From Longimicrobiales bacterium (GTDB lineage Bacteria > Gemmatimonadota > Gemmatimonadetes > Longimicrobiales > Gaopeijiaceae): 64,000 bases of DNA. Below, piece by piece: positions 12,683 to 37,705 of this stretch. Every line of letters begins with the position of its first letter. Position 1 is the first letter of the stretch. A program made the translations under genes and the position numbers. The notes beneath the pieces were generated by a model. It had not been told where the DNA came from and searched no databases. It saw nothing but the letters and a program-made list of their open reading frames with translations. The stretch is taken from NCBI GenBank assembly GCA_965238005.1, contig OZ250165.1:2784001-2848000 (forward strand), given 5' to 3'.

Positions 12683-12691
12683 GCGAAAGCC

Positions 12692-22891: not shown

Positions 22892-23149
22892 GCGACTCCC
22901 CTGGCTGGTGGCAACTCAAATCTTGGCCAATTGGCCGACCGGCGCAAACCGGATTACACCCACGCAGAGCCCGCCGCCACACCTTCTAGGCTTGGGTCGT
23001 GAGGCGGACCAGGGTGGGGGAGGTTGCCTGGGAGCGACCCCCCATCTCGGCATGCCTCGATCGGCATCGGGGAGGATGGCGATGGGCATCCCCATCGTCC
23101 CCTCCGCCGCGGGGTCGCTCCCAGCCAGCAGTCCCTCCGGGAAGGGGGT

Positions 23150-23280
23150 TCGGGGGGCTCGCCCCCCGCCCGCGCACTCCGCCGGAGCGCGGGTCCTCAG
23201 GGGGGTCGAAGGGGGGGCGGAGCCACCCCTCGCCAGATGCCCAATGTTTTACATTGGGTAGGCTGGCTTAAGCACCTTAG
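23150..23280. promoter_or_regulatory. ColE1-like oriT module (copy next to integrase 2)
   Basis: CCCAATGT-TTT-ACATTGGG hairpin followed by TAGGCTGGCTTAA (CTGG^CTTA). Confidence 0.6.
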
Positions 23281-23315
23281 TCTCCGCCCAAGGTGCCGCG
23301 ACGGTGGGCTGCAAC

Positions 23316-24503
23316 CTATGGCTTGCGACTGTCGCCGGTGAGGTACGCAGCCCACTGCTCCATCAGGACGCGCCTGCGCTCGAACAGGTCCGAACGCGCA
23401 TAGGCAGCTTCCACCTTGTTGCGAACCGCATGCGCCAACGCGGCCTCGGCGACCTCACGCGGTGCGTTGGAACACTCGCCGCACCAGTCCCTGAAGCTCG
23501 AACGAAAGCCGTGCGGCACGGCCGCGATACCCAGGTCTCGAAGCAGCGTGGGGAGTCTGCTGCCGGGAAATGCGCGGCCCTCCGGCGACGGGAAAACGAG
23601 ACCGCTGCCGCCGCCGAGCGTCCGCGCCTCGCTCAGTATCTCCATGGCGCGCCCGGACAGCGGCACCCTGTGGGGGCGATGGGCTTTCGTGCGTTCGGCG
23701 GGAACCGTCCACTCCCGAGCCTCCAGGTCGATTTCATCCCAGTGCGCCAAGCGAACCTCTCCCGAGCGGGCCGCCGTCAACACCAGGAACTCGAAGGCGA
23801 GTTTCGTGGTCGGGTAAGCGTGCGACCTCCGCACCGTTTCCATCGCGCCCGCGACCTTCGAGTGAGGCAACGCGCGCATGTGCCGGACTACGGCTTGCTG
23901 TCGGCCGAGCGCTTGACCGAGCACGTCGCTGGCGGGGTTGTCCGGCCGAAGCCCCATCGCCACCGCCCACTTCATCACCGCCCCGATGCGCTGGCGCACC
24001 CGCCGGGCAGTCACCTGCTTGTCGTGCCAGATCGGTGTCAGCACCGCCAGAACGTCGGCTGTCGTTATCTCGCCAACCGGTCGATGGCCGAGCTGTGGGA
24101 ACGCATAGACGCGCAGGCTGGAGACCCAGTCCTTCGCATGCCTGGGGCTGCGCCAGCCCGGCCGCAGCTGTTCCAGAACACGGGCGGCCGCCTCGGCGAA
24201 CGTGGGCATGTCCCGGACCTTGTGCCGCTCGGTACGCGGATCGCCGCCCGAGCGCGCGATCTTGCGGTTCATGAATGCCTTCTCGCGCGCCTCGGCCAGC
24301 GATACCAGCTGGTAGCCCCCGAGCCCCAGCGTGCGGTTTCGACCCTGGATCCGTAGACGCTGCTCCCATCGGCGCGCGCCCGATCGGTCCACGCGCAGAT
24401 AGAGGCCGTTCCCATCGCAGTAGTATCCGGGCTTCGCACTGCGCACGAAGGCCGCGCTGAGTGCGTTATGCGGGCGCCTGCCTCGATGTTTGGGTAAATC
24501 CAT
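23316..24503 (-). CDS. P4-type tyrosine integrase, copy 2
   Basis: Near-identical to copy 1 except the C-terminus; catalytic motifs intact. Confidence 0.95.
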   Translation of the reverse strand: MDLPKHRGRRPHNALSAAFVRSAKPGYYCDGNGLYLRVDRSGARRWEQRLRIQGRNRTLGLGGYQLVSLAEAREKAFMNRKIARSGGDPRTERHKVRDMPTFAEAAARVLEQLRPGWRSPRHAKDWVSSLRVYAFPQLGHRPVGEITTADVLAVLTPIWHDKQVTARRVRQRIGAVMKWAVAMGLRPDNPASDVLGQALGRQQAVVRHMRALPHSKVAGAMETVRRSHAYPTTKLAFEFLVLTAARSGEVRLAHWDEIDLEAREWTVPAERTKAHRPHRVPLSGRAMEILSEARTLGGGSGLVFPSPEGRAFPGSRLPTLLRDLGIAAVPHGFRSSFRDWCGECSNAPREVAEAALAHAVRNKVEAAYARSDLFERRRVLMEQWAAYLTGDSRKP

Positions 24504-24660
24504 TTCCTAGGCCCCGTATAAAGTATCGTATGTTATGTACGGGAACATAGCGGACGTACAGGGACCCTGCAACCCGGAGTGTACTCCATAACTAACTGCA
24601 ATCATGATAGTTAGAGAATCATACTGGACACTCATGGAGTGTATCGGAATCCATGCGCAG

Positions 24661-25281
24661 CAGACGGTTGATCAGCTCGGAGAGAAGCCGCGAGGCTTCG
24701 GCGGGCTCGAGCATCTCGATCGGCGTGTGCTCCTCCACGAGCGCACGGCCCGCGTCCACCGTCGAGCGAAAGCGGGCGGCGGCCGCCTCGATCTCGGAAC
24801 CGAGGTAGGTCGGCGCGCCCCCTCGGCGGCGCTTCCACCACTGCATGAGCCGGGAGGCGCTTCCTGTTCTGGGCCCGTCTGCGACCGTGCGTAGACGGGG
24901 ATCGTGCGACCAGACCAGATAGGCTTCGAGCTGCTGGACGCGGCCCGACAGAAACGCACTCCGCTTCCGCTGCGACACCGCTACGATGCCGGAGCCCTCG
25001 TCGTCCGCGGCCTCGGGCACACTCGGCCGACGGAGCAGATAGAAGTAGAGGCGCGTGTCGGCGTCCAAACCCGAGAGCAACCGCTGCCAGCGGCCCAGCA
25101 CGCGGTCGATCTGTTCGGGCGAACGCCCATCCACCACCGCGGGCTCCAGCCGCCCGGCCGCGATCAGCTCGCCCGAGCGGGTCAGGCAGGTACGGCCGTC
25201 CTCGAGCCAGCCCCAGTAGGGCAGCTCCTCGGCCAACGAGCCGGCCGCCTCGTGGTCCCGGAGCTCCGCGGAGATCCTCAC
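24661..25281 (-). pseudogene. virB4: VirB4 N-terminal fragment
   Basis: Follows virB2-virB3; LAEELPYWGW..LTRSGEL; cut at 24661. Confidence 0.7.
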
Positions 25282-25580
25282 CGCCCGCTCCGGATCACGA
25301 GATACCAGGGCTCATCGGACCACTTGCCCGGATCGAAGCGGGCCGGGTAGCGGGTCCCGGCGCGGAGCACGCCAAGCATGTCCGGGTCTTTGCGGCCGGC
25401 GAGCCACCCGGCCCCATAGCCGACCGCGAACACCACGCCGCCCGTCACCAGCGAAGCCGTCGCGTTCCACATCGCGAGCCCGAGCGTGGCGACGAGCAGA
25501 AACCCCCTACGCTCCACACCCAGGATCGTGAGCGGACGGTTCAGCGCCGGATAGCCGGCCCAGCGCCTCAGACCCCTCAT
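25278..25580 (-). CDS. virB3: VirB3/TrbD
   Basis: ALNRPLTILGVER...TMs...KDP. Confidence 0.8.
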   Translation of the reverse strand: MRGLRRWAGYPALNRPLTILGVERRGFLLVATLGLAMWNATASLVTGGVVFAVGYGAGWLAGRKDPDMLGVLRAGTRYPARFDPGKWSDEPWYLVIRSGR

Positions 25581-25873
25581 CAGAAGAGCCACGCCAGGAA
25601 GTTGGCCGCGCCCATCGCCATCCCGAGACCGAAGATGATCCCGGCCAGCGTCCGCTTGCTACCGCCCTCGCCGAACGCGAACATCAGCCCGCCCACCACG
25701 ATCGCGATCAGCGACAGCCCCCGCGCGATCGGACCCGTGAACTGCGCCTGCAGCTCGTTCACCGCCTCAACCCACGGGCTCGTCCCCTGCGCCCACAGCA
25801 GCCCGGGGGACAGCAACCACAGCGTGAGCGTGGCCCAGGCCGCCGCTCGTACCGTCCTTATGAAAGGTTGCAT
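25580..25873 (-). CDS. virB2: TrbC/VirB2 pilin
   Basis: Signal peptide; SPW...FTGPIARGLSLIAIVVGGLMFAFGE. Confidence 0.88.
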   Translation of the reverse strand: MQPFIRTVRAAAWATLTLWLLSPGLLWAQGTSPWVEAVNELQAQFTGPIARGLSLIAIVVGGLMFAFGEGGSKRTLAGIIFGLGMAMGAANFLAWLF

Positions 25874-25908
25874 CGTCTTCTCCTTGGTCTCTCGCTGGGA
25901 TGCGCCGC

Positions 25909-26400
25909 TCACTCGGCCTCGCCGCGGCTCAACGCGATCTGTTTGCGGATCCACTCGTCCACCTCCTCCTCGATCCAGCCGACAGCGCGCGCGCCCAGCT
26001 GGACGGGTCTGGGGAAGGACCCCTCGGCCAGCCGCACGTAGATCGTGCTCCGCCCGAGCCCCGTGCGAGCTTGCACGGCCGGGAGCCGCACGATGCGGAT
26101 CGGCACCTCCATTTCCTGCACCATGGTTCTCGTCATCTCTCTGCCTCTCCGTTCTCTCGGGGATGAATCCCGGAGCCGGTCGCTCCGGGAGGAAACAGGG
26201 TCCACACCGGCCTCGTCGAAGCCTTCCATGAACGCCAGGAGCTGATCGGCCGTCGCGAGCGTCGGGGAGCGGCCAAGGCGTAGCTCACGCACCAGGTTCG
26301 GATCGCCAACCGCCTGGCGGCCAAGCGTCGCCGGACCCACTCCCGTGCGCTCGAGGAACGCATCCACTCGCGCCATGAAAAGCCCCTTCAGCGTCTCCAT
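25909..26400 (-). CDS. Cro-like HTH joined to an AlpA-family regulator/excisionase
   Basis: C-terminal IVRLPAVQARTGLGRSTIY...FPRPVQLGARAVGW. Confidence 0.75.
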   Translation of the reverse strand: METLKGLFMARVDAFLERTGVGPATLGRQAVGDPNLVRELRLGRSPTLATADQLLAFMEGFDEAGVDPVSSRSDRLRDSSPRERRGREMTRTMVQEMEVPIRIVRLPAVQARTGLGRSTIYVRLAEGSFPRPVQLGARAVGWIEEEVDEWIRKQIALSRGEAE

Positions 26401-26908
26401 GCGGGTAACGCTGAAGGCGCTTAGGCAACAATGTCAATCCGTAGGAAATGACCGACGTTCTTAGTGGATCTATTGGAATTGAAGTAGAACAGCGGCCTCT
26501 CCGGCCGCTCCGCCAGCGGGGCTTGGAGCGGGTGTGGGAGAGCCGCTCGAGGCTGTCGAGAACGTAAAACGGGGTGGGTCGAGACGCAGCCTATCCGGGG
26601 CGATCTATTCGCTGTGGCAAACCCAGGTGCTCAATCCTCCTGAGTCCGATTCATGCCGATCACGGATTCTCAGGCATGTCGCACACGGACAGACACCCAG
26701 CCGACTACAACTGGGCAAGGCCCAGCGACGGATTCGGCCTCAGCAGGTGGTTCTACACGAAGCGACGGCCAGCCGGGGGGTTCCGCCGCCGGCTATAGCG
26801 GAGTGCCTGAGCCCGAGGGTCGGGACGGGCCGTAGGGGTGCGGGAACAAGGCGAGCGTGGATGCCGCTGTGCCCCGGATGGCAAGACTGCCGCGGAGCGG
26901 CAGCGTCT

Positions 26909-27490
26909 TCAGTCGTTCGTCGAATCACGTGACTCAGCCTGGCTGTACTCCTGTGTCGTCGGGAGAGCTTGACCGGTGGGTGATGGCTCTTCAACGGACG
27001 GTACCCATACAGGCAGCACCCGTTTGCCTTCCAACAGCTCGCGCACACCGGTTCGAATAGCAACCTGGTCCGTCTCTGTTTCGCCGAACCCGCGAGGAAA
27101 GTACGCGTTGCGACGAAGGTGTGTCCGATCGAAGTCATAGCCAACGCCTACCGCGATATTGTAAAGTAGGTCAATAAAAAGATCGAGAGTCTTTTCGTGC
27201 CAAACTTCACTTGGCATGTTTGCAGAATTTAGGATGTCCAGGTATGCCTTCCACGCAGACCGTACCCGCTTGGACTTCGCATCCACTCCGCTGAACTCGA
27301 CATCGATCATGTTCAGAGCGTTCACATGATCTGGGGCGAGCCGGGAAGCCCGTGTCATCATGAGGGTGCGGAAGAGCGTCAGGCGACGCTGCCGCTTTTC
27401 TCGACGAGTCTCCAGAAAGACGGAGACTTGGATTGCGATCAGGGGCGCCAATAGGACCGCGTCGACCATCAGTACGTCAGTCAGGGACAT
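26909..27490 (-). CDS. DUF6680-like protein
   Basis: N-terminal TM, LFRTLMMTR...HVNALNMIDVEF...AWKAYLD. Confidence 0.55.
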   Translation of the reverse strand: MSLTDVLMVDAVLLAPLIAIQVSVFLETRREKRQRRLTLFRTLMMTRASRLAPDHVNALNMIDVEFSGVDAKSKRVRSAWKAYLDILNSANMPSEVWHEKTLDLFIDLLYNIAVGVGYDFDRTHLRRNAYFPRGFGETETDQVAIRTGVRELLEGKRVLPVWVPSVEEPSPTGQALPTTQEYSQAESRDSTND

Positions 27491-28180
27491 GCTGGTCTCC
27501 TAGGGATCCGTGTCGACAATCACCTTAACCCTGGATTGACTAGGTCTGCACCGGCCCGGGTGATGGACCGTTCTTGTTAGGCTCCGCGCAGGGGTCACCC
27601 GAAAGCCATTTCCGACTCATCGAGCATGTTGGAGAAAGTGGCTCATCGGTCTATCCCCATGTCGGGCGCCAATAGATATAGCCCAGTTTACCCTCACCCC
27701 CCTGCTCTTGGGCAGCGATGGCCAAACCATACGACGCCTGAAGGCCAGTGACGAACTCCCTCTGTCCGCGGTAACTCGGATAGCGTACGTGGCGCCCTTA
27801 CGCCCAGACCGGCAAGAGTAGTCTGTGCATGGGTCGATCCTTTCGGAGTGCTTGCCCCCCCACAACAGTGCTGTCACAACGCCAGAAGCACTGGTTGTCT
27901 TGGCCAACGGTCTCGTCCCAAACAACCTCGCCGGGCAAAAGATGAGTTTCCTCGATGAATGCCAGTCCAGTTTGCCGACCGCCACGGTACCCAAGGTCAC
28001 GGTCGGCCCGGAGCGCCTCAACTCCTTTGGCAAGTGCGCCGCCTCGAGGACTGGGTAGCCATTCCCCTACGGGGTCAGCAGGCGTTCCCACAACAACTTG
28101 AATACAATTATCGAAGTGAAGCGTCTCATAAGTTCTCTTGATTACTTGCCATAATTGTCAATTTCGGCCATTTCATCCGG

Positions 28181-29347
28181 CTATTTAAATGTAATCGTGC
28201 GTTCCTCTAGATCAGCGATAACAGTCCCTCCTCGATGTTTACACACTTCCCTGAATACTCGAAATCCCTCCAGTATCGCGACCTCCCACTGCCAAAGTGG
28301 GCGACTCTCCACTTCATACCCTTTCACAAGTTTCTGAATGGCCTTCAACAGTGAGTAGTCGAGGGCGTTGATATTCCGAAAATGATGGTTCTGGAGGCCG
28401 TGGTTAAAGATCCATGTAGAGATGCCTTCTTCAATCAGGCTGGCACGTGCACCATCTTCATTCTCATCGATCTCTGGGCGGCTCTTCCGTTTGGCTTTGA
28501 ACAGGCGCCGCACAACTGGGGACCAGCCAAGAATCGCTGCATATGCGAGATGAAACACGTCGTGAAAGCGGTAATTATCTGGCGTAGAACGGTTGTCCGT
28601 TAATGGGTCTCCGATAGCGATTCCATTGCACTTCTGGATAACGTACTTCTTTCCTAACACATCTTTTTCTTTGAATACAATCTCAATCCGACGTGGCAGA
28701 CGCTCATCTTCGTCAAAGTCGTCGTCATACAGTGCTTGCCATTTCTGTTCCCTCGGCCATCGACTTTGAGTTTTGTTCATATTGGAGCGTGCCGCCGCGT
28801 CGAGGCTTACATCAGCAGCGTCAGCAGTCGCAACGAGGGCGAGCAAGATATCGGATAGGTCGGCTAAGAGTGCATCTTGATTCGTATCGAATCTCCCATT
28901 GCTGAAGTTATCAATTACCTGGCCAACATTTGCCGCAAGGGCCATGAGACGCCTCTCGACGACTTCTGTCGAGTGAGGTCCTTCAAAATCATCTTTTCTC
29001 GTTTGGATATCAATGAACGTTGAAGCGGCCTCTTGTCCCCTATAGTCCCAATCCGATAGACCGGCAGGTAGGCGCGTGGCAATTTCGGAAAAAGGAAGGC
29101 CTGCGCGAAGCGCTGCATTTGCGAAGTACCAAAGCACATCGCCCAACTCCTCGATGACCGAATCCCGGTATGCAACGTACGACTCCTTGTCCCGTTGTTT
29201 CTTCTTCAACTGGCTGAGTAAGCTGCCAGTTTCACCAAAAAGACCAAAAAGAACGAACCCTAATCCTGATAATCCTGGGCGGTCGTTCTTGTCAGTTAGT
29301 GTCGTTGCGTGCTGGTACTCGTCTAGTCCCAGTGGTGACGATGCCAT
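28181..29347 (-). CDS. MazG-family nucleotide pyrophosphohydrolase with C-terminal MazG-associated domain
   Basis: GLFGETGSL...EELGDVLWY; a second degenerate MazG repeat; GDPLTDN..YRFHDVFH..EDGARA..EE. Confidence 0.8.
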   Translation of the reverse strand: MASSPLGLDEYQHATTLTDKNDRPGLSGLGFVLFGLFGETGSLLSQLKKKQRDKESYVAYRDSVIEELGDVLWYFANAALRAGLPFSEIATRLPAGLSDWDYRGQEAASTFIDIQTRKDDFEGPHSTEVVERRLMALAANVGQVIDNFSNGRFDTNQDALLADLSDILLALVATADAADVSLDAAARSNMNKTQSRWPREQKWQALYDDDFDEDERLPRRIEIVFKEKDVLGKKYVIQKCNGIAIGDPLTDNRSTPDNYRFHDVFHLAYAAILGWSPVVRRLFKAKRKSRPEIDENEDGARASLIEEGISTWIFNHGLQNHHFRNINALDYSLLKAIQKLVKGYEVESRPLWQWEVAILEGFRVFREVCKHRGGTVIADLEERTITFK

Positions 29348-29616
29348 GAATTCGTACCTCTCGTGCCAGAGTATTGGGGCTCGTTGTGTCTTTGTTCAGA
29401 ATTCGGTAGGATGGGCCAATCTTACACTGAGGCAGGGATCAGCGCAGGGATTCTGGGCATGACCCACTGACTTCAAGGGTCGGTTCGTTCCGAGAGCACA
29501 CGCGGGAGCTGCTAGGTTGACCCACCAGGACCGACCATGCATCTGGCTTCGTCTTCGAGAAACTGTTCACGTACTCGGAGCCGGAGATCGCCCACAGATG
29601 CGGCGCTGAACGCGAA

Positions 29617-30690
29617 TCAGACCTGCTCTCCGAGTCCACTCGCAATCCGGGAGTTGATCCCCCACTTGGGCGGGTACCAGGGTCGTGGCAGCTCGCCTGT
29701 CTCTCGGAACGACTGCTTGATACGAGTTCTCCCAGACACTCCGGGGAAGTCGGGATGTGCAACTCTGGCGTACTTGCCCACTTCACAGAAGAGGTTTTGA
29801 CAGTCTATATACTGGAGTGGTCTGCCCCATAGATCCTTGAACGTGATTCCGAATCCTTCGAACTCCTCATCTTGCCGATCCACCATGAGCTTTATCACGT
29901 CGACTTCGTTCAATCCTCCGAGGTCGTGAAAACATTTGTGGATGCCGTCGATAGCGCCGGGGCCCGGCACAACGAACTCAGACTCGGAGAAATCAACAAT
30001 GGGTCCATAGTTCAGGTCGGTCACGAACTGATATGCTAGGAAGTCTCCAATAGATGGAAACGAGCGAATCAGCATGAACGCGTCCTGCATCCGTTGGCAT
30101 TCTTGGAGTCGGTCCGGCACGTCTGCAGCCATCATCTGCTCCAGCAATCGAAGGTGGTTGCGGTGCTTTCGTCGAGATCCGAACAAACTGGGTGAGGGAA
30201 CGATGTAGGCAGCGGAGTAGAGTTTGTCTCCGCGTCGAAAGGCTCCGTCTAGGACTCGGTCGTACTCCCCGAAGCTGTATGTCGACCAAGAGACTTCTCC
30301 AAACTCACTTTCGAGCCTCTGCCAAGTGTGAATTCGATTAAAGAGCTTGAAGAGGATCGTTCGAAAAAAAAGTTCGATGGGCGTTTGGAGTGGCTGGTGG
30401 ATGACACGCCGAATCAAAAACTGACTCGTCCGATCTGAAGCACGATACGCGTTCGTGAACTTGAACTTCTGAAGAATAGGATCCTCCGTCCATGGTGCAG
30501 GATGACCCTGGACGCGACGGAAGAAGATCTCCTGTCGAGCAGCCGCTAGGCGCCAGTAGCTCTCGTATACAGGTGTCGGGATTGCCGGTCGCAGGCGCAC
30601 AAAGACCTCGGGTGCGACTTGCGAAGGGGCCTTTCGGGACGAAATCGCTAGCCGCAGCTGCGCGTCGCCCGCTGGCTTCTCACGGCCCAA
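29617..30690 (-). CDS. DNA base-hypermodification protein (aGPT-Pplase2 / 5-hmdU-kinase-associated helical family)
   Basis: RQEIFFRR..PWTEDPILQKFKFTNAYRASDR; HhH-like FPSIGDFLAYQ; GPGA; QNLFCEVGKY. Confidence 0.75.
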   Translation of the reverse strand: MGREKPAGDAQLRLAISSRKAPSQVAPEVFVRLRPAIPTPVYESYWRLAAARQEIFFRRVQGHPAPWTEDPILQKFKFTNAYRASDRTSQFLIRRVIHQPLQTPIELFFRTILFKLFNRIHTWQRLESEFGEVSWSTYSFGEYDRVLDGAFRRGDKLYSAAYIVPSPSLFGSRRKHRNHLRLLEQMMAADVPDRLQECQRMQDAFMLIRSFPSIGDFLAYQFVTDLNYGPIVDFSESEFVVPGPGAIDGIHKCFHDLGGLNEVDVIKLMVDRQDEEFEGFGITFKDLWGRPLQYIDCQNLFCEVGKYARVAHPDFPGVSGRTRIKQSFRETGELPRPWYPPKWGINSRIASGLGEQV

Positions 30691-31297
30691 CGGTTGCGGT
30701 CAGATCCAAGGCCGCTCTCACCTTTTCCTTTGCCTGCTTTAACGTTCCTTCGTTAACGATCCGTATGACGTTCAGTTCTCCCTCTGCTAGCCGTCCGTAG
30801 GCGAGAGACAGCTTCCTGAATTGATCTCGGTCGTGCTCCTCCCGAAAAGGCTGCCGACGCTCGACCAGAAAGATTGGAGTGGGGCTGAGTGCACCCCATG
30901 TGCTCTTCTCCAATTCCAACAGGGCCGTCATCTGCGACTCAGCAACACCGTTAGCCACGCCATAGACCCAGGCCGACCACCAATACCGATCCAAGAGCAC
31001 GGTTTTGCCAGATCGAATGGCTGGCTTGATACGCTTGTCGATCGCATCAATGTGTGCCGCAACGTGGAGCATCTGGAGTGCAAATGGCTCAATGTCGTAA
31101 CTACCGTGATGAAGGTCATAGACCCAGCGACCCAGTGAACCGGGATCGTTACCCGGGAAGGCCAGGCCGACGACCGGAAGGTTCGCCTCCTTCAGAAGAT
31201 CCAGGCAAAATGAATGCAGCGTCGACTTGCCGACCCCGTCGGGTCCCTCCAAGACGATCAATCTTCCGGGCCGTGAGCCTCCGCCGTCCGGGCTCAT
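30680..31297 (-). CDS. Thymidylate (dNMP) kinase
   Basis: IVLEGPDGVGKST P-loop; LLDRYWWS. Confidence 0.85.
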   Translation of the reverse strand: MSPDGGGSRPGRLIVLEGPDGVGKSTLHSFCLDLLKEANLPVVGLAFPGNDPGSLGRWVYDLHHGSYDIEPFALQMLHVAAHIDAIDKRIKPAIRSGKTVLLDRYWWSAWVYGVANGVAESQMTALLELEKSTWGALSPTPIFLVERRQPFREEHDRDQFRKLSLAYGRLAEGELNVIRIVNEGTLKQAKEKVRAALDLTATVGP

Positions 31298-32022
31298 TCC
31301 TTGCGGAGCTCGCTGGCCAACCCAGCAAGCTCACCCTTCGAAAATCTATTCGAAAGGCCCGCGACTGAGGAGACGCAGGTAATCCGAGTCAGGTTTCGAT
31401 CGAAGGCGTCGGCAACGAACTCTCCCAGCCTCGCGAGCCCAAGATAGTTTCCGTAGCCACGATCGAAGATGTCCTGTTTCGCATAGAAGCCAGTCACCGC
31501 AAAACCGTTATGAGCCTCTGGCACGAAGCAAACCTGGTGCATGCACGGGAATCCGAGAAAGGGAGTCGGGAGGTGGTCTGTAGAGGGATCGAAGAAGGAA
31601 GCTACGAAGGCACTTCGGCGTTTCACGTTCCGGTTCCAGGTCGCGATGATTCTCTCAAGTTGGTTGATCTCCTTAACTCCGAACGAGATGAGGCGCAGAA
31701 AGTATGTGCCACGACGATTTGCAGGAATCTTGCAGATTCTCTTCTCGTAGACTTTACGATACCTCTCATAGAGAGCGGCACGCGACGTGCCGCGTCGCCA
31801 CATGCTGCTAGGGAAGATCGTCGAAGCCGTCGTCCCCACCCTCCAGACGCCCGGCTGAGCACAGAGGAGCGCGTCAACAGCACTGCGGACGTGGAGATCC
31901 TCAGGAGGGAGACCAGAGAAGCCAGAAACGGTAATCACCAGAGGACTGATCTCGCGATGATCGTAAGTTGCCAAGAACGCATGGGTCCACGCCCCGCTCA
32001 AAGTGTCGGATTCGATCAACAT
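31294..32022 (-). CDS. Divergent thymidylate-synthase-family protein
   Basis: GTYFLRL, INQLE, catalytic FPCMHQ, GYGNYLGL. Confidence 0.7.
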   Translation of the reverse strand: MLIESDTLSGAWTHAFLATYDHREISPLVITVSGFSGLPPEDLHVRSAVDALLCAQPGVWRVGTTASTIFPSSMWRRGTSRAALYERYRKVYEKRICKIPANRRGTYFLRLISFGVKEINQLERIIATWNRNVKRRSAFVASFFDPSTDHLPTPFLGFPCMHQVCFVPEAHNGFAVTGFYAKQDIFDRGYGNYLGLARLGEFVADAFDRNLTRITCVSSVAGLSNRFSKGELAGLASELRKE

Positions 32023-32041
32023 CGCAGGCCGCCGTGAAGTC

Positions 32042-32893
32042 TTAGTCGGGAAGAAAACGAAAGCGCGCGCGTCCCTGATACTTGGCACGAGCTACCCGAA
32101 CGAAGGCAGCCTTCCCGGACTGGAAAAGCACCCTCCCCCTACCGGGAGTAGTCGCCTCGCTCAGCAGAAATCTGCTTGTGCTTAGCCGGCACTCCAAGAC
32201 ATCACCCTCAATGGATGTACACGGGGGCAAAGCAACGACTGATCCGGTCTGAAGATCGATGGCTCGATCCGACCAATCCGAACTTACTATGGTGACGGCG
32301 CCCTTGATATCGGATTTCAAGAGATCCGTGCAGAGGTCGATAGGACGTAGCTTCTTCAGGACGTCATACCGCGCGCGCGGGAGAAATCCCAGAGAAAGTG
32401 CCATTTGGTTCACGAGAGTCGAGTAGCCGACGCCAAGCCACTGGGCTACTTGGAGGATCTCAACAGGAGACGCTACGCCGGGCTCCCAGCCGCGCTCCCT
32501 GAACCCTCTAGACACTGCCGTCATCGGCATCATGAGGAAAGCGGCAAACATATTGGCAAGCCACTCTGCTTCAGTTGCCTGGTCAGTGGGGTCCTCAGCG
32601 ATAAACGCATCCAATCTCGAACCGTGACCGAAGACGTGGTGTCCTAGCTCGTGCGCGCAGGAAAAGGCTTGACGTCCTGGCGGCCTGTCGGATGGTAGCA
32701 GGATCGTCGGGGTCTCTCCCGAATAATACATACCCTCCAACGATCCCAGGGGAACGAACAAGACTTCGAGGCCCGCTGCTTCGGCTAGGTCAATCACATC
32801 CAACGCTTCCCAAGGCTGCTTACCGTGCTTCTGGCGAGTTTCCAGGGCTGCACGAGCAGCCTCTAAACTAAGAGTGCGCTTTAACTTAGACAC
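32042..32893 (-). CDS. ImmA/IrrE-family metallopeptidase
   Basis: FSCAHELGHH...EWLANMFAAFLMMP. Confidence 0.88.
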   Translation of the reverse strand: MSKLKRTLSLEAARAALETRQKHGKQPWEALDVIDLAEAAGLEVLFVPLGSLEGMYYSGETPTILLPSDRPPGRQAFSCAHELGHHVFGHGSRLDAFIAEDPTDQATEAEWLANMFAAFLMMPMTAVSRGFRERGWEPGVASPVEILQVAQWLGVGYSTLVNQMALSLGFLPRARYDVLKKLRPIDLCTDLLKSDIKGAVTIVSSDWSDRAIDLQTGSVVALPPCTSIEGDVLECRLSTSRFLLSEATTPGRGRVLFQSGKAAFVRVARAKYQGRARFRFLPD

Positions 32894-33230
32894 CGGCTTG
32901 ACGAGCCCCCTGGATCGCCTTGATGATTTGGATCAAGGCATCTAGATCTTCCCGGCTCATCTTCTGGAGTTCGCGCGCAGCCACAACTGCCTCAAGCCGA
33001 AGGTCGTCGTCGTCTTCGGCCGTCAGCCAGCCCGTCGAGACACCATAGAGATCCGCAAAGCAGGCCAGCTCATCTGCACGCACTCTTCGGCGGCCAGCCT
33101 CTATTTCCGAGATTGTCGGGCGATGAAGCTTCATCAATCTCGCCGCCTGAGCCTGAGATAGCCCGGCCAGCTTGCGGGCCTTCTGGAGCCTTTCGGCAAG
33201 ACCTGCCACTCTGCTAACCTCATCAGACAT
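32886..33230 (-). CDS. XRE-family HTH regulator
   Basis: RLQKARKLAGLSQAQAA...TISEIEAGRR. Confidence 0.88.
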   Translation of the reverse strand: MSDEVSRVAGLAERLQKARKLAGLSQAQAARLMKLHRPTISEIEAGRRRVRADELACFADLYGVSTGWLTAEDDDDLRLEAVVAARELQKMSREDLDALIQIIKAIQGARQAGV

Positions 33231-33510
33231 TCTCAGCTCCCCCAAATCCAGGTGTCTGAGCAATCCGTTCGGCCACCTCCGCCACGGTCAGGACGGTCCC
33301 TGGCTCGTCCTCAGGGATGAGGACTCCCTTCACTTCAAACTTCAACTTTTCTGAGACCAAGACCTCTAGCTCGAGGCACTTGAGGCTATCGAACTCGTCC
33401 AGGTCAAGGGGCTTCGAATGCTCGGTGAGCTCTGGAGCGGGCAGACCCGAGCTAATCTGTATCTCACACAGAGTTTCGATCAGGACCCTCACAACTCCAC
33501 TATGCTCCAT
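33223..33510 (-). CDS. Acyl-carrier-protein-like protein
   Basis: 95 aa, acidic; FDSL phosphopantetheine-site motif; C-terminal TVAEVAERI. Confidence 0.6.
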   Translation of the reverse strand: MEHSGVVRVLIETLCEIQISSGLPAPELTEHSKPLDLDEFDSLKCLELEVLVSEKLKFEVKGVLIPEDEPGTVLTVAEVAERIAQTPGFGGAENV

Positions 33511-34272
33511 GCGATCTCTCTCCTTCCAAGACGATGGGTAAGATTATCTTACCATGACATAAGATACAGCATCCGGCCAGATGCGAAACAGGGATCTTTC
33601 TGCCGGCACGTCGGCCCCGGTCTGAAACCAGTCGCACGTTTGCCGGGCGAGCAAAAAGCAGAAGTGCAGGAAGAGGGACGCGACGAGGAAGGCAAGCTCT
33701 GGAGATGCCTCCAGTTCAGGATGGACCGGCGCCCTTGGTGGGCTACCGACACTTGTCTCAAGGATTCCGGTGCATAATCAGTCAACGCTGAGACCATGGC
33801 GGACGGGAGCGACCCCAGGCCAAACCAATACCACGCCCCAGATGGGTGCCTCTTCTGCCGCAGATCGCCCGTCCTCTACCGCCTTGAGAGCGATCCGATA
33901 CGGGGTGGCCCTACCTTCCGGGGTTGGGACAAGAGAAGCGCGAGAATACCGGCTATCACTAGCGCAGCTTGCATCATCTCCGGGACCTCCCAAACGGAGA
34001 CACGAACCCCCCGCGGGGGGTTCGGAGCGTTTCCCTCCGGGCGCTATCTACCCGCAGGGGAAGCGACATACGGCCCCCTGGCCAGGATCGGTAGGATTTC
34101 AAATCGCCGGACCATCATCGGGCCGTAGCCATCATCGCCGTCCAGGTCGGGCCGGTCGATCAGCCCAACCGTCAAAGCCAGGCAAACAGCCTCGGGATCT
34201 CGAGCCAGCGCCCGCTCACCACCGCGCCCCACACTCCGGCCGTCAGCTCTTCGCGGTCCAGCTGGTCAATTC

Positions 34273-34358
34273 TCATTCCCCGGTCACGTAGGCCGCCCAG
34301 TCACCCATGAGCCGGCGGCGGCGCTCGAACAGGTCCGTACGCCGATAGGCCGCCTCGG
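34273..34358 (-). pseudogene. P4-integrase 3' remnant
   Basis: EAAYRRTDLFERRRRLMGDWAAYVTGE*. Confidence 0.75.
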
Positions 34359-34840
34359 CAGAGTACCGGTGGCGTGATTCACGGCAAGATATCGTCTAAA
34401 GTCAACCAGGACTGCACGATCTGCGTTTCTTGCCGTTCGACCATACCTGAGTCCACCGCACTAGAATGGCGGGGAAATCGCATCAAATCGCGGGAACCCC
34501 GGTCGGCTCGAACTGCTAACGGTACCTGCCGGAATAGACGGTCGCCGGCGACCGGATAGGCCGCCAAGGCAAGAACGGTTGGCGATCTCTTCGCTCGGTA
34601 GCTCCGGCCGTTCCACAAATGAGCGATTCCCAAACGCCCCACCGCAAAAAGCACGTGGAGTACCGCCGCCAAGCGGGAAGGCGAGATGCCAACGGTCTCC
34701 AGTTGGGGTCCAGCCGCGCCTCGGTCAAGTGGAAGTTGGGCAGCGACGACCAACGCCATGGCCACACGGACCTGAAGGCGTGTCCTGAGCTCTACCTATT
34801 CTCCTTCGGCTACGACCCAGACAAGAGATAGCACCTGCGA

Positions 34841-36124
34841 TTGACGCGGAATCGCCAGTGTGCTCTCAAAGAGTTCAACGGGCTGGCGTTGCTCGATCTC
34901 AAGGCACGCGTAGAACGACCTCCGCAACGCAAGCCGCGCGGCCGGCATCCCAACAACGCGCTCACGCCGGTCTTCGTCCGCAACGTGAGCCGGGCCGGGC
35001 GCTATTGTGACGGCCAGGGCCTCTATCTCGATGTCCGGCCCACGGGGAGCCGGGGCTGGATCCAGCGCCTCACGATCCGGGGCCGCCGAACCGAACTCGG
35101 GCTCGGCGGATTCCCTCTGGTCTCGCTGAAGGAGGCGCGCGCGAAGGCGTTCGCGAACCGGAAGCTGGCCCGCGACGGTGGCGACCTCCTAGCCGAGAAG
35201 CGGCGGGCCGAGTCGATGCCCACCTTCGCGGAGGCGACACGGCAGGTCTGGACGCAGTTGCGGCCGGGCTGGCGCTCCGCGCAGCATGCGCAGCTATGGA
35301 TGAGCAGCCTGAAGCGCTTCGCCTTCCCCCGCATCGGCGGGATGCCGATTTCGGAGGTGACGAGCGCCGACGTGATCGGGATTCTGGCCCCGATCTGGCA
35401 CGACAAGGCAACCACCGCCCGGAAGCTGCGCCAGCGCATCCGCGCGGTCATGGAGTGGGCGGTGGCGATGGACCTTCGGCCCGACAACCCGTGCGATCGG
35501 ATCGCCCCGGTGCTCGGAGCCCACCGGAATGTTGTGCGTCACATGCGGGCGTTGCCTCACGGCGAGGTGGCGTCCGCGATCGAGAAGGTGCGGGGGTCCA
35601 ACTCGGGGCCGGTCGTGAAGCTGGCCTTCGAGCTGCTGGTGCTGACGGCGACGCGCTCCGGCGAGGTCCGTGGGGCGGTGTGGACGGAGATCGACCGGGA
35701 CGAGGGCGTGTGGACCATCCCGGCCGAGCGCACGAAGGGGAGCCGCGAGCACCGCCTCCCGCTCAGCGGTCGAGCGCTGGAGATTCTCGAGGAGGCGCGC
35801 GCGCTCGGTCGCGGCAGCCCGCTCGTGTTTCCGAGCGTGCGCGGCAAGCCGCTCGGGAATACGTCGTTGTGGGACCTGCTCAGGGGGCTGAAGATCGCGG
35901 CTGTGCCGCACGGCTTCCGGTCGTCGTTCCGGGACTGGGCGGCCGAGGAAACCGATCATCCACCCGAGGTGGCGGAGGCGGCGCTGGCGCACAAGGTCCG
36001 CAACCGGGTCGAGGCCGCGTACCGTCGCACGGATCTGTTCGAGCGGCGGCGTCGGCTGATGAACGATTGGGCCGCGTATCTGGCCGGCGAGCGTCGAGAC
36101 CCGGAGGCCGGTCCCAGCCGCTGA
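34841..36124 (+). CDS. P4-type tyrosine integrase, copy 3 (native start apparently lost; homology begins ~34915)
   Basis: Close to copy 4 from RPPQRKPRG onward; catalytic motifs present. Confidence 0.85.
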   Translation: MTRNRQCALKEFNGLALLDLKARVERPPQRKPRGRHPNNALTPVFVRNVSRAGRYCDGQGLYLDVRPTGSRGWIQRLTIRGRRTELGLGGFPLVSLKEARAKAFANRKLARDGGDLLAEKRRAESMPTFAEATRQVWTQLRPGWRSAQHAQLWMSSLKRFAFPRIGGMPISEVTSADVIGILAPIWHDKATTARKLRQRIRAVMEWAVAMDLRPDNPCDRIAPVLGAHRNVVRHMRALPHGEVASAIEKVRGSNSGPVVKLAFELLVLTATRSGEVRGAVWTEIDRDEGVWTIPAERTKGSREHRLPLSGRALEILEEARALGRGSPLVFPSVRGKPLGNTSLWDLLRGLKIAAVPHGFRSSFRDWAAEETDHPPEVAEAALAHKVRNRVEAAYRRTDLFERRRRLMNDWAAYLAGERRDPEAGPSR

Positions 36125-36163
36125 GGCGCGAGCCGTTGAGGCCCGATCCGAGGCCGATCCACG

Positions 36164-36300
36164 GCTGGCTCTTGACCCTTAAGGGTCAAGAGCCAGCATA
36201 CCCTTTGTACCCACAAAGGGGCTGGCGAGGGGGGCGCTCCGCTCCCCCTTCGATCCCCCCGAGGCCCGCGCTCCGGCGGAGCTCGCGGGTAGGGGGCGAG
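36164..36300. promoter_or_regulatory. oriT module with perfect 34-bp palindrome
   Basis: GCTGGCTCTTGACCCTT|AAGGGTCAAGAGCCAGC (36164-36197), then the conserved GC-rich block. Confidence 0.65.
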
Positions 36301-36524
36301 CCCCCCTTCCCCCCTGCCGGTGCGCTGCCCGCATCAGCGCTCGGTGGCCTTCCCGCCAAGGGATCCATGGAACGGGAGTATCCATGTCAAGAGGGTACCG
36401 TCAGGAGCGGGGCCGGGGAGACAGGGCGGGACGGTACCGGTGAACGCGGGATGCGGTCGCTGAGTCAGGCGAGAGCTCGCGGATGGAGCTGTTCGACCTG
36501 GCTCGCCGGTTGGGTGCATGGCGC

Positions 36525-37478
36525 TCATGCGTGGTGTCCAGGCGCGTACGCCGTCCAGATGCGATCCTGCTGCACGAGGGCGTTGGCGAGGACGAGGAGC
36601 TTCCGCATCACCGCCGTAAGGGCAACCTTCGGCGGTTTCCCCTTGGCCACGAGAGCCGCGTACTTCCGCTTGAAGTCGGGATTGTACCGGATCGCGACTA
36701 ACGCGGGCATGTAGAGCAATCGGCGCACCGGGTGCCTGCCACCCTGGATGAAGCTGCGTCCCTTCCAGGAGCCGGACTCCCGGGTCACTGGGGCGAGTCC
36801 GGCGAGGCTGGCGGCACGGGACCCGGTGAGAGTGCCCAGTTCAGGCATATGGACGATCAGTCCTGCGGCGGTGATGTCCGAGATGCCGGGGATGGAGGTC
36901 AGGATCTCGGACTGGCGCTCCAGAGCCTCCTCTGCCCGGAGCCGATTGCGGATCTCGGCGTCGATGCGCTTCAACTGGCGCTCGATCTGCTTCAGCCGTT
37001 GCTTGTTGAGCTGCTTGGCCACGGAGGTGCGCAAGTGCTTGCCGCGGTTGGTGATGGCGACCCGATCCCCGACCAGCGCATCGCGGACCAGCTGGAGTTC
37101 GGCAAGGTCGCGCTGCCCTTCGGACTTCGCTTGAGTCGGGCGGAGATCCTCGATGGCCGCCGCCATGGCGGCCAGCATCCGGGCGTCCACGGCATCGGTC
37201 TTGGCGCGCCGGCCGAGCGAGCGGGCGAAGGAGCGGACCTGGTAGGGGTTGATCGCGTAGAGGGGGAGCTTGGCCTTCAGGAGGGCATCCTCGAAGTCGC
37301 GGTGGAAGGGTCCGGTGGGTTCGTAGGCGATCCGGTCGACCTCGGAGCCGATCCAGGCGATCAGCTTCCGGAAGCCCGTCGGGTCATTCGAGAACCGGGA
37401 TGCTCTCCCCTCGGATACGGCGAAGACGTCGAGCCAGTCCTTGGAGATGTCGATCCCGATGGTGCGAAGGATGCTCAT
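36525..37478 (-). CDS. IS110 DEDD recombinase
   Basis: IGIDISK, YEPTG, AKTDAVDA, SIPGI, RESG (catalytic Ser). Confidence 0.93.
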   Translation of the reverse strand: MSILRTIGIDISKDWLDVFAVSEGRASRFSNDPTGFRKLIAWIGSEVDRIAYEPTGPFHRDFEDALLKAKLPLYAINPYQVRSFARSLGRRAKTDAVDARMLAAMAAAIEDLRPTQAKSEGQRDLAELQLVRDALVGDRVAITNRGKHLRTSVAKQLNKQRLKQIERQLKRIDAEIRNRLRAEEALERQSEILTSIPGISDITAAGLIVHMPELGTLTGSRAASLAGLAPVTRESGSWKGRSFIQGGRHPVRRLLYMPALVAIRYNPDFKRKYAALVAKGKPPKVALTAVMRKLLVLANALVQQDRIWTAYAPGHHA

Positions 37479-37484
37479 CTTCCC

Positions 37485-37705
37485 TTCTCCTGTGCTTGTC
37501 ATGCGAGCCTCGATGCTCATGTATCCATTCAGGACGTAGGGAAGGACGGTGGCGACCATACTCCCGTGCGGCCCCTCACGGCCCAGCGACCCGCGGTCCG
37601 ACCACCGTCCCTGTTCGGCGCCCGCTCCGGCTCGCTACGCTCGCCTCCTCGGGTGCCGAACAGCCCGGGCCTTCCCCGTGACCCGGACCTGCAGATCAAA
37701 CAGAC
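37485..37705 (-). ncRNA. Predicted bridge RNA
   Basis: Guides GGGTCGCT and ACGGGAG match the target; ATGGATAC and GACAAG match the donor junction; boundaries approximate. Confidence 0.75.

Follow-up and report, generated by a model that had tools for sequence, protein, structure and literature searches.

The closest known system to the gene cassette examined here is DS-4 ('NTTI', DefensePredictor; DeWeirdt, Mahoney & Laub, Science 2026; PMC13092281), the only system of the PF18723-centred family whose anti-phage activity has been validated by experiment. According to section 5 and Tables S7/S8 of that paper, DS-4 consists of a thymidylate synthase (TS), a dNMP kinase, a PF18723 protein, an NDT/TIR-like protein and Nmad2, the fourth protein being assigned by the authors to a MilB-type hmCMP N-glycosidase fold (Table S8). 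The system was scored as defensive and replicated, and the cloned set alone protected E. coli against phage, which makes outdated the statement in the original prediction that no functional characterisation was known. No account of the mechanism was found in the part of the paper that deals with DS-4. Systems with aGPT-Pplase, MazG and MazG-C domains are presented there as predicted and unvalidated (Fig. 6F, referring to Burroughs et al. 2015). The CapP/CapH pair is described as regulating immune operons in response to ssDNA (PMC13228613). In phages, a PF18723-kinase fusion is reported for the SP10 5-hmdU DNA kinase (PMC5889632 Table 3; PMC8989533 Table 1), and the in-vitro reaction did not need the PF18723 homologue M6 gp55 (PMC8989533). 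According to the abstract of PMC6457204, bacterial transcription is switched off when 5hmU in the template is phosphorylated enzymatically.

Layout, setting and regulatory genes

The window, a 64,000-nucleotide stretch of contig OZ250165.1 from a Longimicrobiales bacterium, carries on its minus strand seven tightly packed, co-oriented ORFs at 28181-33510 (Table 1). ORFs 1-6 overlap or are separated by at most about 19 nt, and a 269-nt spacer lies ahead of ORF7. This agrees with the predicted arrangement, as does the AT-richer composition, GC being 0.50-0.59 over 28000-34000 vs 0.65-0.71 at 23000-26500 and 34500-37500. Four phage-type integrases, T4SS fragments, a relaxase and IS110 copies bear out the description of the surroundings as a mobile defence island, as do the type III R-M system and the TIR-TM protein encoded in the window itself, and, also as predicted, no phage structural domain was detected among the 39 window ORFs scanned. 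The island is decayed, with an integrase C-terminal relic at 34276-34368 and truncated T4SS genes and IS110 copies near the cassette. PF18723 was found in one of 40 relatives and in neither of two within the same genus; given this rarity and the low GC, the operon is accessory and horizontally acquired.

Table 1 Features of the cassette (window coordinates).
Feature	Position	Strand	Details
Candidate operator	33537..33553	-	Perfect palindrome GGTAAGATAATCTTACC; 26 nt upstream of ORF1 ATG
ORF1, acidic ACP-like carrier protein	33223..33510	-	95 aa; invariant Ser42 (FDS motif)
XRE-family repressor (CapH-like)	32886..33263	-	125 aa; HTH_3 1.3e-14; alternative ATG at 33230
ImmA/IrrE-type M78 zinc peptidase (CapP-like)	32042..32893	-	283 aa; Peptidase_M78 1e-15; HELGH motif
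TSl, divergent protein of predicted thymidylate-synthase fold	31294..32088	-	264 aa from GTG; likely start ATG 32022
Thymidylate-kinase-family P-loop kinase	30680..31297	-	205 aa; PF02223 (Thymidylate_kin) 2.7e-14
PF18723 (HMUDK_hel) protein	29617..30690	-	357 aa; PF18723 2.4e-110; HhH-glycosylase-like helical fold
TS2 relic, second TS gene	29431..29610	-	About 60 N-terminal codons, two in-frame stops, remainder deleted
MazG + degenerate second MazG-like domain + MazG_C	28181..29347	-	388 aa; PF18722 2.7e-79; N-terminal EELGD

Conservation was assessed in 80 related loci from many phyla, anchored on PF18723. Of 81 loci amounting to 1.21 Mb, 40 had a single copy of the palindrome core, GTAAGA-N3-TCTTAC; all 40 copies lay at most 50 nt from the start called for the carrier gene, with none elsewhere in the 81 loci. 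The carrier family itself was found in 58 of the 80 loci, every time together with XRE, and directly upstream of it on the same strand in 56 of these. ORF1 is ACP-like: it had no Pfam match, its family profile A1 matched acyl carrier proteins in the PDB (best E 1.2e-4), Ser42, the sole invariant residue of the family, was aligned with the DSL serine, and the homologue in locus L031 passed the Pfam PP-binding cut-off (21.6 vs 20.8 bits). No dedicated PPTase accompanies the cassette, the two in the genome being about 0.8 and 1.8 Mb away. The XRE protein (61/80 loci) matched PADLOC capH at 1.1e-13 over residues 21-117, and the M78 peptidase (63/80 loci) matched capP at 1.7e-15, the capP HMM spanning the peptidase domain only; in an alignment of 36 peptidase sequences H81, H85 and E110 were invariant, and E82 and C79 nearly so.

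Enzymes of the cassette

TSl, present in 66 of the 80 related loci, had no Pfam match and reached NCBIfam thy_syn_methano at 6.7e-10, under the family cut-off. Its predicted structure (pLDDT 95.6) has the TS fold, the Foldseek matches (1.6e-9 and below, prob 1.00) being headed by the CMP hydroxymethylase MilA (1.6e-9) and including many thymidylate synthases. Alignment A2 of the family disclosed as invariant C161 (GFPC), N193 (YGNY), Y108 and R111, the Asn being aligned with the base-specifying Asp of MilA; the motifs GFPC, YGNY and AKQD quoted in the original prediction are all present. Equivalents of TS Glu58 and Arg166 are absent (family consensus ATQ), so activity and substrate of TSl are uncertain.

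The TS2 relic is located inside the spacer ahead of MazG. When 29 TS2 proteins were compared with it by tblastn, the best score was 32.3 bits and 16 queries gave at least 23 bits; none of 1000 dinucleotide shuffles reached either this best score or the 16-query count. The relic was also the best match of the TS2 profile in a six-frame search of the whole window (HMM positions 5-65, E 0.01), and intact TS2 occupies the same position in L031 and L059. Intact TS2 of related loci was 39% identical (E 2e-46) to PaMx11_51, the TS beside the phage 5-hmdU kinase cluster. Because the spacer holds this relic, the cassette copy is partly decayed, and it may work as natural TS2-less variants do or may be impaired.

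Complete inactivity, with TS2 lost in a decaying island and the remaining genes forming no working pathway, appears rather unlikely. In its favour are the two in-frame stops, the integrase relic, the truncated T4SS genes and IS110 copies close by, the distant PPTases, and the retention of TS2 in three of the four other loci with a full-length MazG-MazG_C gene (L031, L059, L066, L080). Against it, the seven remaining ORFs are all full length with respect to their homologues, TS2 is missing in 10 of the 36 Tmk-bearing related loci (TS2-less loci with both Tmk and MazG include L012, L038, L047, L062 and L064), and the same TS2-less arrangement recurs on a contig that another study produced and that diverges by about 1.2% (68 differences, 28078-33931).

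The kinase matched TIGR00041 at 1.7e-15, under cut-off, and PADLOC PDC-M51B at 4.3e-11; Tmk was found in 36 of the 80 loci and in 25 cases formed a fusion with the PF18723 protein. Its assignment to the phage 5-hmdU DNA kinase type was ruled out by the comparison with PaMx11 gp49 (BLASTP E 0.35). The MazG ORF also matched PF03819 (1.6e-7), PF12643 (1.4e-3) and phrog_229 (1.4e-44). The family is present in 47 of the 80 loci, mainly in a short form spanning residues 134-387, and the full-length proteins of L031, L059 and L080 are 53-54% identical to that of the cassette.

The sixth gene had been proposed to encode an aGPT-Pplase2, an assignment that was rejected: in the Pfam scan it matched nothing besides PF18723 at E<=0.01, whereas the characterised aGPT-Pplase2, PaMx11 gp46, matches the amino-acid:DNA transferase family PF18724 (ADDT) and PaMx11_50 matches PF18723. 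The gene apparently belongs to aGPT-Pplase clade 1. The other domain calls, namely ACP-like carrier, XRE, ImmA/M78 peptidase, TS fold, dTMP-kinase family and MazG with MazG_C, held. Relatives of the PF18723 protein across phyla share 52-58% identity, with C253, C297, C302 and E303 invariant. Its model (pLDDT 86.8) gave in VIA-align a best match to PaMx11 gp46, a 5-PmdU glycinyltransferase (Z 10.6, 223 residues, rmsd 3.9), followed by queuine-salvage DUF2419 (Z about 10) and HhH DNA glycosylases (Z 6-8.7), levels at which, by VIA-align's own warning, helical proteins may match one another generically. DUF2419, an equally good match, cleaves free queuosine-5'-monophosphate, not DNA.

The best structural match of TSl, the fit of the PF18723 model to DUF2419 as well as to gp46, and the MilB-type fold assigned to the fourth DS-4 protein would also suit sabotage of the pyrimidine pool without DNA modification, by which phage would be starved or poisoned at the precursor level. 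The TS-fold enzyme and the kinase would divert dUMP/dCMP-type nucleotides, MazG would hydrolyse dNTPs, and the PF18723 protein would cleave or rearrange the free modified nucleotide. Consistent with this are dCTP-deaminase-like genes in 18 of the 80 related loci and the established nucleotide-depleting defences, e.g. dGTPase, which is a PADLOC family and a neighbour in L010. We consider it unlikely, as PF18723 genes also occur in phages needing their modified nucleotides (502 phage records), PF18723 is reportedly fused to the kinase in SP10, and the family is not known to have glycosidase activity.

Conservation and proposed mode of action

XRE, ImmA and TSl occurred together in 61 of the 80 PF18723-anchored loci. 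In the reverse test, anchored on TSl and run on 400 further genomes from the phylum, five had TSl, and PF18723 adjoined it in four of the five. The gene set is thus conserved as a unit with the palindrome in front, and the gene order is kept elsewhere. Relatives of the cassette adjoin known defence genes: PADLOC matches at E<=1e-10, obtained for 34 of the 90 large ORFs in the flanks and spread over 21 of 34 loci, included Gabija, Hachiman, AbiE, dGTPase and R-M.

The mosaic character of the window, with its integrases, T4SS genes and relaxase, together with one plasmid-borne relative (L027), might instead point to an element that modifies its own DNA, XRE/ImmA acting as an ICE induction switch like ImmR/ImmA and hypermodified transfer DNA evading restriction in recipients. 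ImmR/ImmA-type modules are described, in the abstract of 10.1101/2022.05.11.491493, as controlling ICEs, and the enzyme families derive from phage self-protection pathways (PMC8989533). This is very improbable, considering that regulators, enzymes and conserved operator move as one block through unrelated contexts, many of them chromosomal defence islands, that DS-4 was protective when cloned alone, and that the cassette lacks PF18724, the characterised family of DNA transferases.

Inducible defence by the cassette is likely; as originally predicted, an inducible anti-phage role is favoured by the conserved unit, the CapH/CapP match and the defence neighbours, and the pathway analogy, built in part on an aGPT-Pplase2, was weakened. 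We see about an even chance that the cassette is a PF18723-centred nucleotide/DNA-modification family operon under a CapH/CapP-type switch, acting as follows. The XRE repressor on the palindrome would hold the operon off until infection or DNA damage switched on the M78 peptidase and the repressor was cleaved. The TS-fold enzyme, which keeps the catalytic Cys and Asn, would put a one-carbon group on C5 of a uracil-type nucleotide, a step at which the second, phage-like TS would act in intact relatives, and the thymidylate-kinase-type enzyme would phosphorylate the product. MazG would strip out a rival canonical dNTP, letting the odd base into phage DNA during replication, and on this base the PF18723 protein, with its base-flipping HhH-type fold, invariant Cys and frequent kinase fusion, may act to yield unusable DNA.

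This explanation draws on the conserved unit, the operator, the switch, the defence context, the accessory status, DS-4, the likeness to the phage toolkit, the enzyme features and the transcription shut-off reported for phosphorylated 5hmU. Counted against it were the lack of DS-4-type NDT/TIR-like or Nmad2 genes, the TS2 relic, the missing TSl residues, the kinase unlike gp49, the dispensability of M6 gp55, the possibly generic structural Z, the DUF2419 match and the decayed island; moreover, the mechanism leaves the carrier protein without a role, yet the carrier occurs in 58 of the 80 loci.

Comparison with described systems

Among the phage thymidine-hypermodification clusters compared (M6, PaMx11, ViI and SP10; PMC5889632, PMC8989533, PMC11472151), in PaMx11 the kinase is followed by PF18723 and then TS (gp49, gp50, gp51), an order corresponding to Tmk, PF18723, TS2 in L031 and L059. 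Unlike these clusters, the cassette has no PF18724 amino-acid:DNA transferase, its kinase is of another family, and its locus is devoid of PLP, radical-SAM and FAD tailoring genes; the cassette is set in a bacterial island and controlled by a repressor/protease switch, the phage clusters in a replication module. The predicted analogy with the phage pathway is weakened by the missing aGPT-Pplase2, by the unlike kinase and by the reduction of the phage-like TS to a relic in the cassette.

As in CapH/CapP (10.1101/2022.04.27.489752; PMC13228613), the regulated genes follow an XRE repressor and an M78 peptidase downstream, in the same orientation; the cassette pair has its best PADLOC matches in capH and capP, and the peptidase resembles CapP in length (283 vs 288 aa) and in its HExxH...E ligands. 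It differs in that the loop leading from the second His to the Glu ligand, the site of the CapP cysteine switch, has no Cys, and a carrier-protein gene stands ahead of the repressor.

With the predicted aGPT-Pplase/MazG/MazG-C systems, as named in the figure of PMC13092281, the cassette shares the same domain families, a likeness by named domains only. With DS-4, as listed in that paper and compared by domain annotation, it shares a TS-fold enzyme, a P-loop dNMP kinase and a PF18723 protein, consecutive and co-oriented. In DS-4, by contrast, the TS is of the canonical PF00303 type, the kinase is T4-Dek-like, and NDT/TIR-like and Nmad2 genes are present, neither of which was found in the cassette locus; the DS-4 listing includes no XRE, ImmA, carrier protein or MazG. 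The cassette adds to the DS-4 set the switch, the carrier protein, the divergent TS-fold protein and MazG-MazG_C. In L067, the five domain types of DS-4 are all present around a PF18723 protein 55% identical to that of the cassette, and loci of this type unite the DS-4 and cassette gene sets.

A low-GC cassette in mobile DNA

The cassette comprises seven co-oriented genes with a GC content of 0.50-0.59, as opposed to 0.65-0.71 in the flanks, encoding a small carrier-like protein (ORF1), an XRE regulator, an ImmA-type peptidase, a divergent protein of the thymidylate synthase (TS) fold, here designated TSl, a kinase, a PF18723 protein of 357 aa and a MazG-MazG_C protein of 388 aa. ORF reading and base composition bear out the co-orientation and low GC described in the original prediction, whose observations were largely right: one gene had been misnamed, the PF18723 gene having been called aGPT-Pplase2, and one relic had been missed, that of TS2, the second, canonical TS gene of related loci. 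A PADLOC scan of the cassette returned no match for TSl, the PF18723 protein or MazG-MazG_C, for which the library holds no models.

Features of the cassette and its surroundings, with positions in the window and best supporting match
Feature	Position	Strand	Evidence
Type III R-M pair, complete	10712-15733	+	MTase_III 4.7e-208; REase_III E 0
TIR-TM protein	20969-21796	-	PADLOC PDLC03016 4.1e-78; Pfam TIR_2
TrbC/VirB2 pilin, VirB3, AlpA regulator and ORF 24619-25281	24619-26400	-	ORF 24619-25281 without Pfam match
DUF6680 protein	26909-27490	-	3.4e-55
MazG-MazG_C	28181-29347	-	MazG 1.6e-7; MazG_C 2.7e-79
PF18723 protein	29617-30690	-	HMUDK_hel 2.4e-110
Kinase	30680-31297	-	Thymidylate_kin 2.7e-14
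TSl	31294-32088; likeliest start ATG 32022, 19 nt past ImmA stop	-	ORF reading
ImmA	32042-32893	-	Peptidase_M78 1e-15
XRE	32886-33263	-	HTH_3 1.3e-14
ORF1 (ACP-like carrier)	33223-33510	-	ORF reading
Palindrome upstream of ORF1	33553-33537		
Integrase C-terminus relic, 31 codons	34276-34368	-	81% identical to the integrase at 34841-36124
Integrase	34841-36124		
2Fe-2S ferredoxin, nucleotide cyclase and Rieske domains	55495-56841	-	Cyclase resembles Pycsar PycC models (3.6e-21)

In the window, mobile DNA forms a mosaic beside a tRNA-Ile gene, with four phage-type integrases, VirB2/VirB3/CagX-type T4SS genes, a relaxase, an AlpA regulator, and two IS110 and one Mutator-family transposases. The integrase relic bounds the low-GC segment; metagenome contigs stack over it to a depth in the thousands, as expected of a conserved integrase motif. 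A search for att sites found that 26351-27000 and 33501-34900 share no direct repeat reaching 12 nt, so that none could be assigned. The window also holds the type III R-M pair and the TIR-TM gene, the latter in a separate low-GC patch (0.51-0.58) some 6 kb away from the cassette. The DUF6680 gene just downstream was considered as a further cassette member and rejected, since none of the 80 related loci has a similar gene near PF18723; it probably represents cargo unconnected with the cassette. The pilin, VirB3 and AlpA genes beside an integrase look like a decayed conjugative element, and the ferredoxin-cyclase-Rieske protein lies outside the island, adjoining the tRNA-Ile gene. The source genome, one contig of 4.84 Mb, has a single PF18723 gene. 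Among 40 relatives searched a single one had PF18723, and it was not found in either of the two same-genus genomes; the cassette is therefore accessory and acquired.

Recurrence in related loci and a candidate operator

At least 590 relatives of the PF18723 protein were found in species-representative genomes, and the loci around the best 80 of these, 54-62% identical to the window protein, were analysed. By database label they derive from Pseudomonadota, Chloroflexota, Cyanobacteria, Acidobacteriota, Planctomycetota, Verrucomicrobiota, Bacteroidota-type lineages and others. Profile HMMs built from the loci and applied within 7 kb of the PF18723 anchor, loci cut by contig ends included, detected TSl in 66 of the 80, ImmA in 63, XRE in 61, the carrier in 58, the MazG family in 47, the kinase in 36, a phosphopantetheinyl transferase (PPTase) in 30, TS2 in 28, and dCTP-deaminase-like, ThsB-TIR-like and Nmad2 proteins in 18, 12 and 11, respectively. 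XRE, ImmA and TSl occurred together in 61 loci, and the carrier was never present without this block (58/58), its gene being placed immediately upstream of XRE in 56 of them. The kinase and TS2 co-occurred in 26 loci, MazG and TS2 rarely (4 loci), and the PPTase accompanied MazG in 27 of its 30 loci. Fusions to PF18723 involved the kinase in 25 loci and MazG in 4.

The full gene set of the window was found again in nine loci. Its order, which the original prediction had expected to be conserved elsewhere, recurs exactly in L031 and L059, with TS2 in addition between PF18723 and a full-length MazG (54% identical). In the reverse direction, a TSl profile run against 400 other genomes of the phylum found TSl in five, with PF18723 immediately downstream in four of them; the fifth TSl is on a 3-kb contig. 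Two other arrangements were observed. Locus L072 (1417-6436), and likewise L058, has a fused kinase-PF18723 gene followed by a radical-SAM enzyme, a CTP-dependent riboflavin-kinase-like protein and a Type ISP restriction enzyme of 1116 aa, which may couple modification with restriction, while in L006 (9577-11760), L018 and L020 the cassette includes a 727-aa protein in which a calcineurin-like metallophosphatase is fused to a TS-like domain.

The flanks of these loci were scanned with PADLOC (E<=1e-10), taking the first 90 of 228 non-cassette ORFs of at least 250 aa, from 34 loci. Matches were obtained for 34 of the 90 ORFs, in 21 of the 34 loci, as raw counts without background control, and included Gabija, Hachiman, AbiE, dGTPase, DISARM, type I R-M, SIR2-pAgo partners and bSEFIR. 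It is in this setting, with mobile genes around the window copy and defence-type genes around its relatives, that a mobile element modifying its own DNA has to be weighed as the role of the cassette; we regard this as distinctly unlikely.

Upstream of ORF1 lies a perfect palindrome, GGTAAGATAATCTTACC. The core GTAAGA-N3-TCTTAC occurs 40 times in 81 loci (1.21 Mb), never twice in one locus, never more than 50 nt from a called carrier-gene start and nowhere else in these loci, while rough arithmetic predicts fewer than one such site by chance. Because the core recurs solely at carrier-gene starts, the cassette appears to carry its own candidate control site across phyla, and the carrier gene would be the first gene of the regulated unit, with the candidate operator ahead of it.

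The naming of ORF1 as an acyl carrier protein gained support. Searched against the PDB, its family profile matches acyl carrier proteins by the dozen (best E 1.2e-4), one homologue exceeds the Pfam PP-binding cut-off, and its sole invariant residue, Ser42 (38 of 38 aligned sequences; 59 of 59 in another count), aligns with the serine that is phosphopantetheinylated in these proteins. Family HMM searches found no ACPS/PPTase gene in the window; the genome has two PPTases, both away from the cassette, and in the related loci the ACPS-type gene (PF01648, 1.4e-17) stood alongside the carrier in 27 of 30 cases. A related clade-2 enzyme is reported to couple the thiol beta-mercaptoethanol in vitro to the exocyclic methylene (PMC8989533). 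This thiol addition, the constant company of the carrier with XRE-ImmA-TSl, the PPTase genes and the invariant serine together are the grounds for a speculative role of the phosphopantetheinylated carrier in the chemistry itself: the TS-fold or PF18723 enzyme would attach its thiol or a carried group to the pyrimidine C5-methylene, and the resulting protein-nucleotide or protein-DNA adduct would act as immune effector or as signal to the protease switch. We hold this to be a long shot. A literature search found no link of a carrier protein and a phosphopantetheinyl transferase to phage defence. When a complex of ImmA, TSl and the carrier was predicted, a control equalled its score, so that the prediction speaks neither for nor against binding.

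Enzymes of the cassette and the TS2 relic

TSl gave no PF00303 match in the Pfam scan, and its profile matched PDB sequences only at E 0.22, to MilA, so that a fold search was needed. With the TSl model (pLDDT 95.6), Foldseek retrieved MilA together with numerous thymidylate synthases (E 1.6e-9 and below, probability 1.00, TM 0.55-0.66, 12-16% identity). Invariant in 47 family members are the GFPC cysteine (C161), which aligns with the MilA cysteine, the YGNY asparagine, Y108 and R111. The RSxD motif of TS is replaced, by ATQ in the consensus and AKQD in the window copy, and the position aligned with the MilA glutamate is variable, being serine in the window copy. Equivalents of TS Glu58, to which this glutamate corresponds, and of Arg166 (E. 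coli numbering) were sought by alignment and found absent. Since cysteine and asparagine are invariant while the RSxD and glutamate positions are changed, TSl is a TS-fold protein retaining the nucleophile and the uracil-type Asn, with an altered phosphate and acid-base site.

The 357-aa protein matched PF18723 only, at E<=0.01, and the designation aGPT-Pplase2 was thus not borne out. Indeed, the aGPT-Pplase2 characterised by biochemistry and structure, the glycine:DNA transferase gp46 of phage PaMx11 (PMC8989533 Table 1; PMC11472151), matches a different family, PF18724 (ADDT), at 1.6e-27. The homologue of the window protein in this phage, PaMx11_50, also matches PF18723, and its gene sits between those of gp49, a P-loop 5-hmdU DNA kinase, and gp51, a TS. 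Together with this homology, one phage record labelling its PF18723 match "aGPT-Pplase1 domain-containing protein" and the listing of SP10 gp186 as an N-terminal kinase fused to a C-terminal PPlase1 (PMC5889632 Table 3) place the window protein apparently in aGPT-Pplase clade 1. Phage M6 entries carry different names in the 2018 and 2021 tables (PMC5889632, PMC8989533), and M6 gp55 is dispensable for the in-vitro reaction (PMC8989533).

With the PF18723 model (pLDDT 86.8) Foldseek found nothing significant, the top match being gp46 at E 0.053; VIA-align also ranked gp46 best (Z 10.6, 223 residues aligned, rmsd 3.9), followed by DUF2419, an enzyme of queuine salvage, at Z about 10 and by HhH DNA glycosylases at Z 6-8.7, values that, as the tool warns, can be generic among helical proteins. 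A phmmer search of PDB sequences gave nothing at E<=10. In a non-significant hhalign comparison of the family alignment with gp46 (probability 0.12), the invariant C302 falls on the catalytic Cys247 and Q298/N299 on the metal ligands Glu243/Thr244; C302 as the counterpart of Cys247 is a lead only.

The PF18723 and MazG-MazG_C ORFs are separated by 269 nt. Directly after the PF18723 stop, this spacer contains about 60 codons resembling the N-terminus of TS2, with a DPxQRWVxSRxPAxNPA-like stretch and two in-frame stops. Against 29 TS2 queries it scored up to 32.3 bits, and 16 queries scored at least 23 bits; in 1000 dinucleotide shuffles of the spacer neither figure was attained. It is also the top TS2-profile match in the six-frame window (profile positions 5-65, E 0.01). 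Intact TS2 is of the PF00303 type (1.1e-23, Pfam on related loci); that of L031 had no BLASTP similarity to TSl and is 39% identical (E 2e-46) to PaMx11 gp51, the TS gene that follows PF18723 in the phage. As the spacer holds a relic of this gene, the window cassette has lost its gene most like the phage TS. A 6165-nt contig from another study, which covers 28078-33931, rules out an assembly artefact: it has 68 differences, and nothing is inserted at the spacer. Set between this decay and the TS2-less architectures that occur among relatives (e.g. L012, L038, L047, L062 and L064), the view that the window copy is an inactive remnant, which is compatible with the other readings, seems rather doubtful. 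For comparison with intact relatives the window copy is a natural TS2-deletion variant.

The kinase is a P-loop protein of the thymidylate-kinase family (PADLOC PDC-M51B, 4.3e-11) and matched the proven 5-hmdU DNA kinase PaMx11 gp49 in BLASTP only at E 0.35. The last protein exceeds the cut-offs of both MazG (PF03819; 31.9 bits, cut-off 22) and MazG_C (PF18722; 265.6 bits, cut-off 29.7). A phmmer search of PDB sequences reached only E of about 0.6, tblastn against a phage collection gave no match at 1e-5, and the tie to phages is a PHROG profile only. For a cassette combining such a kinase and MazG with a TS-fold enzyme, sabotage of the pyrimidine pool without DNA modification is the reading to be set beside a modifying one, and we judge it unlikely.

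Proposed function and known defence systems

The most likely reading, though an even call, is that the cassette is an inducible anti-phage system making and using a C5-modified pyrimidine; the observations establish only its anatomy, and the chemistry is inferred from the families involved and the pathway known in phages. If the family works in this way, the DNA-hypermodification toolkit of phages would have been turned into an inducible bacterial weapon, a mode of defence that would differ from cleavage, depletion and signalling. The family is large, with at least 590 relatives in species-representative genomes, and has its own conserved candidate operator; few-gene bacterial cassettes are a tractable place for finding the activity of PF18723 proteins. 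The original interpretation, an inducible defence by nucleotide or DNA hypermodification, was partly supported, and it was partly overtaken by the 2026 DefensePredictor paper, which reports DS-4 as validated (PMC13092281).

The regulator pair resembles CapH/CapP, described in PMC13228613 as an ssDNA-activated switch of immune operons. PADLOC assigned capH (1.1e-13) to XRE and capP (1.7e-15) to ImmA, and the cassette shares with that pair an XRE HTH repressor and an M78 peptidase with HExxH and a downstream Glu, H81, H85 and E110 being invariant and E82 nearly so. A cysteine such as that of the cysteine-switch loop of CapP, a loop that the same paper calls not universal, was looked for between H85 and E110 and found neither in the window ImmA nor in the family consensus.

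DS-4 (DeWeirdt et al. 2026, PMC13092281) is made up of a TS of 361 aa, a dNMP kinase, a PF18723 protein, an NDT/TIR-like protein and Nmad2; aGPT-Pplase, MazG and MazG-C domains are listed in the same paper among predicted, unvalidated systems. Family HMMs for the NDT/TIR-like and Nmad2 genes, built from related loci, detected neither in the six-frame window (best E 0.31 and 0.62). DS-4 has a canonical PF00303-type TS, whereas the window has TSl and the relic of TS2; its kinase, DS-4B, is assigned to T4 Dek (1DEK) and that of the window to the thymidylate-kinase family, a comparison at the level of descriptions. The PF18723 HMUDK_hel protein is shared by the cassette and DS-4, DS-4C having been assigned to PF18723 by its authors. 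The absence of NDT/TIR-like and Nmad2 genes and of an intact canonical TS, together with the result on aGPT-Pplase2, lowers the case for identity with either and leaves that for working in a related way where it was.
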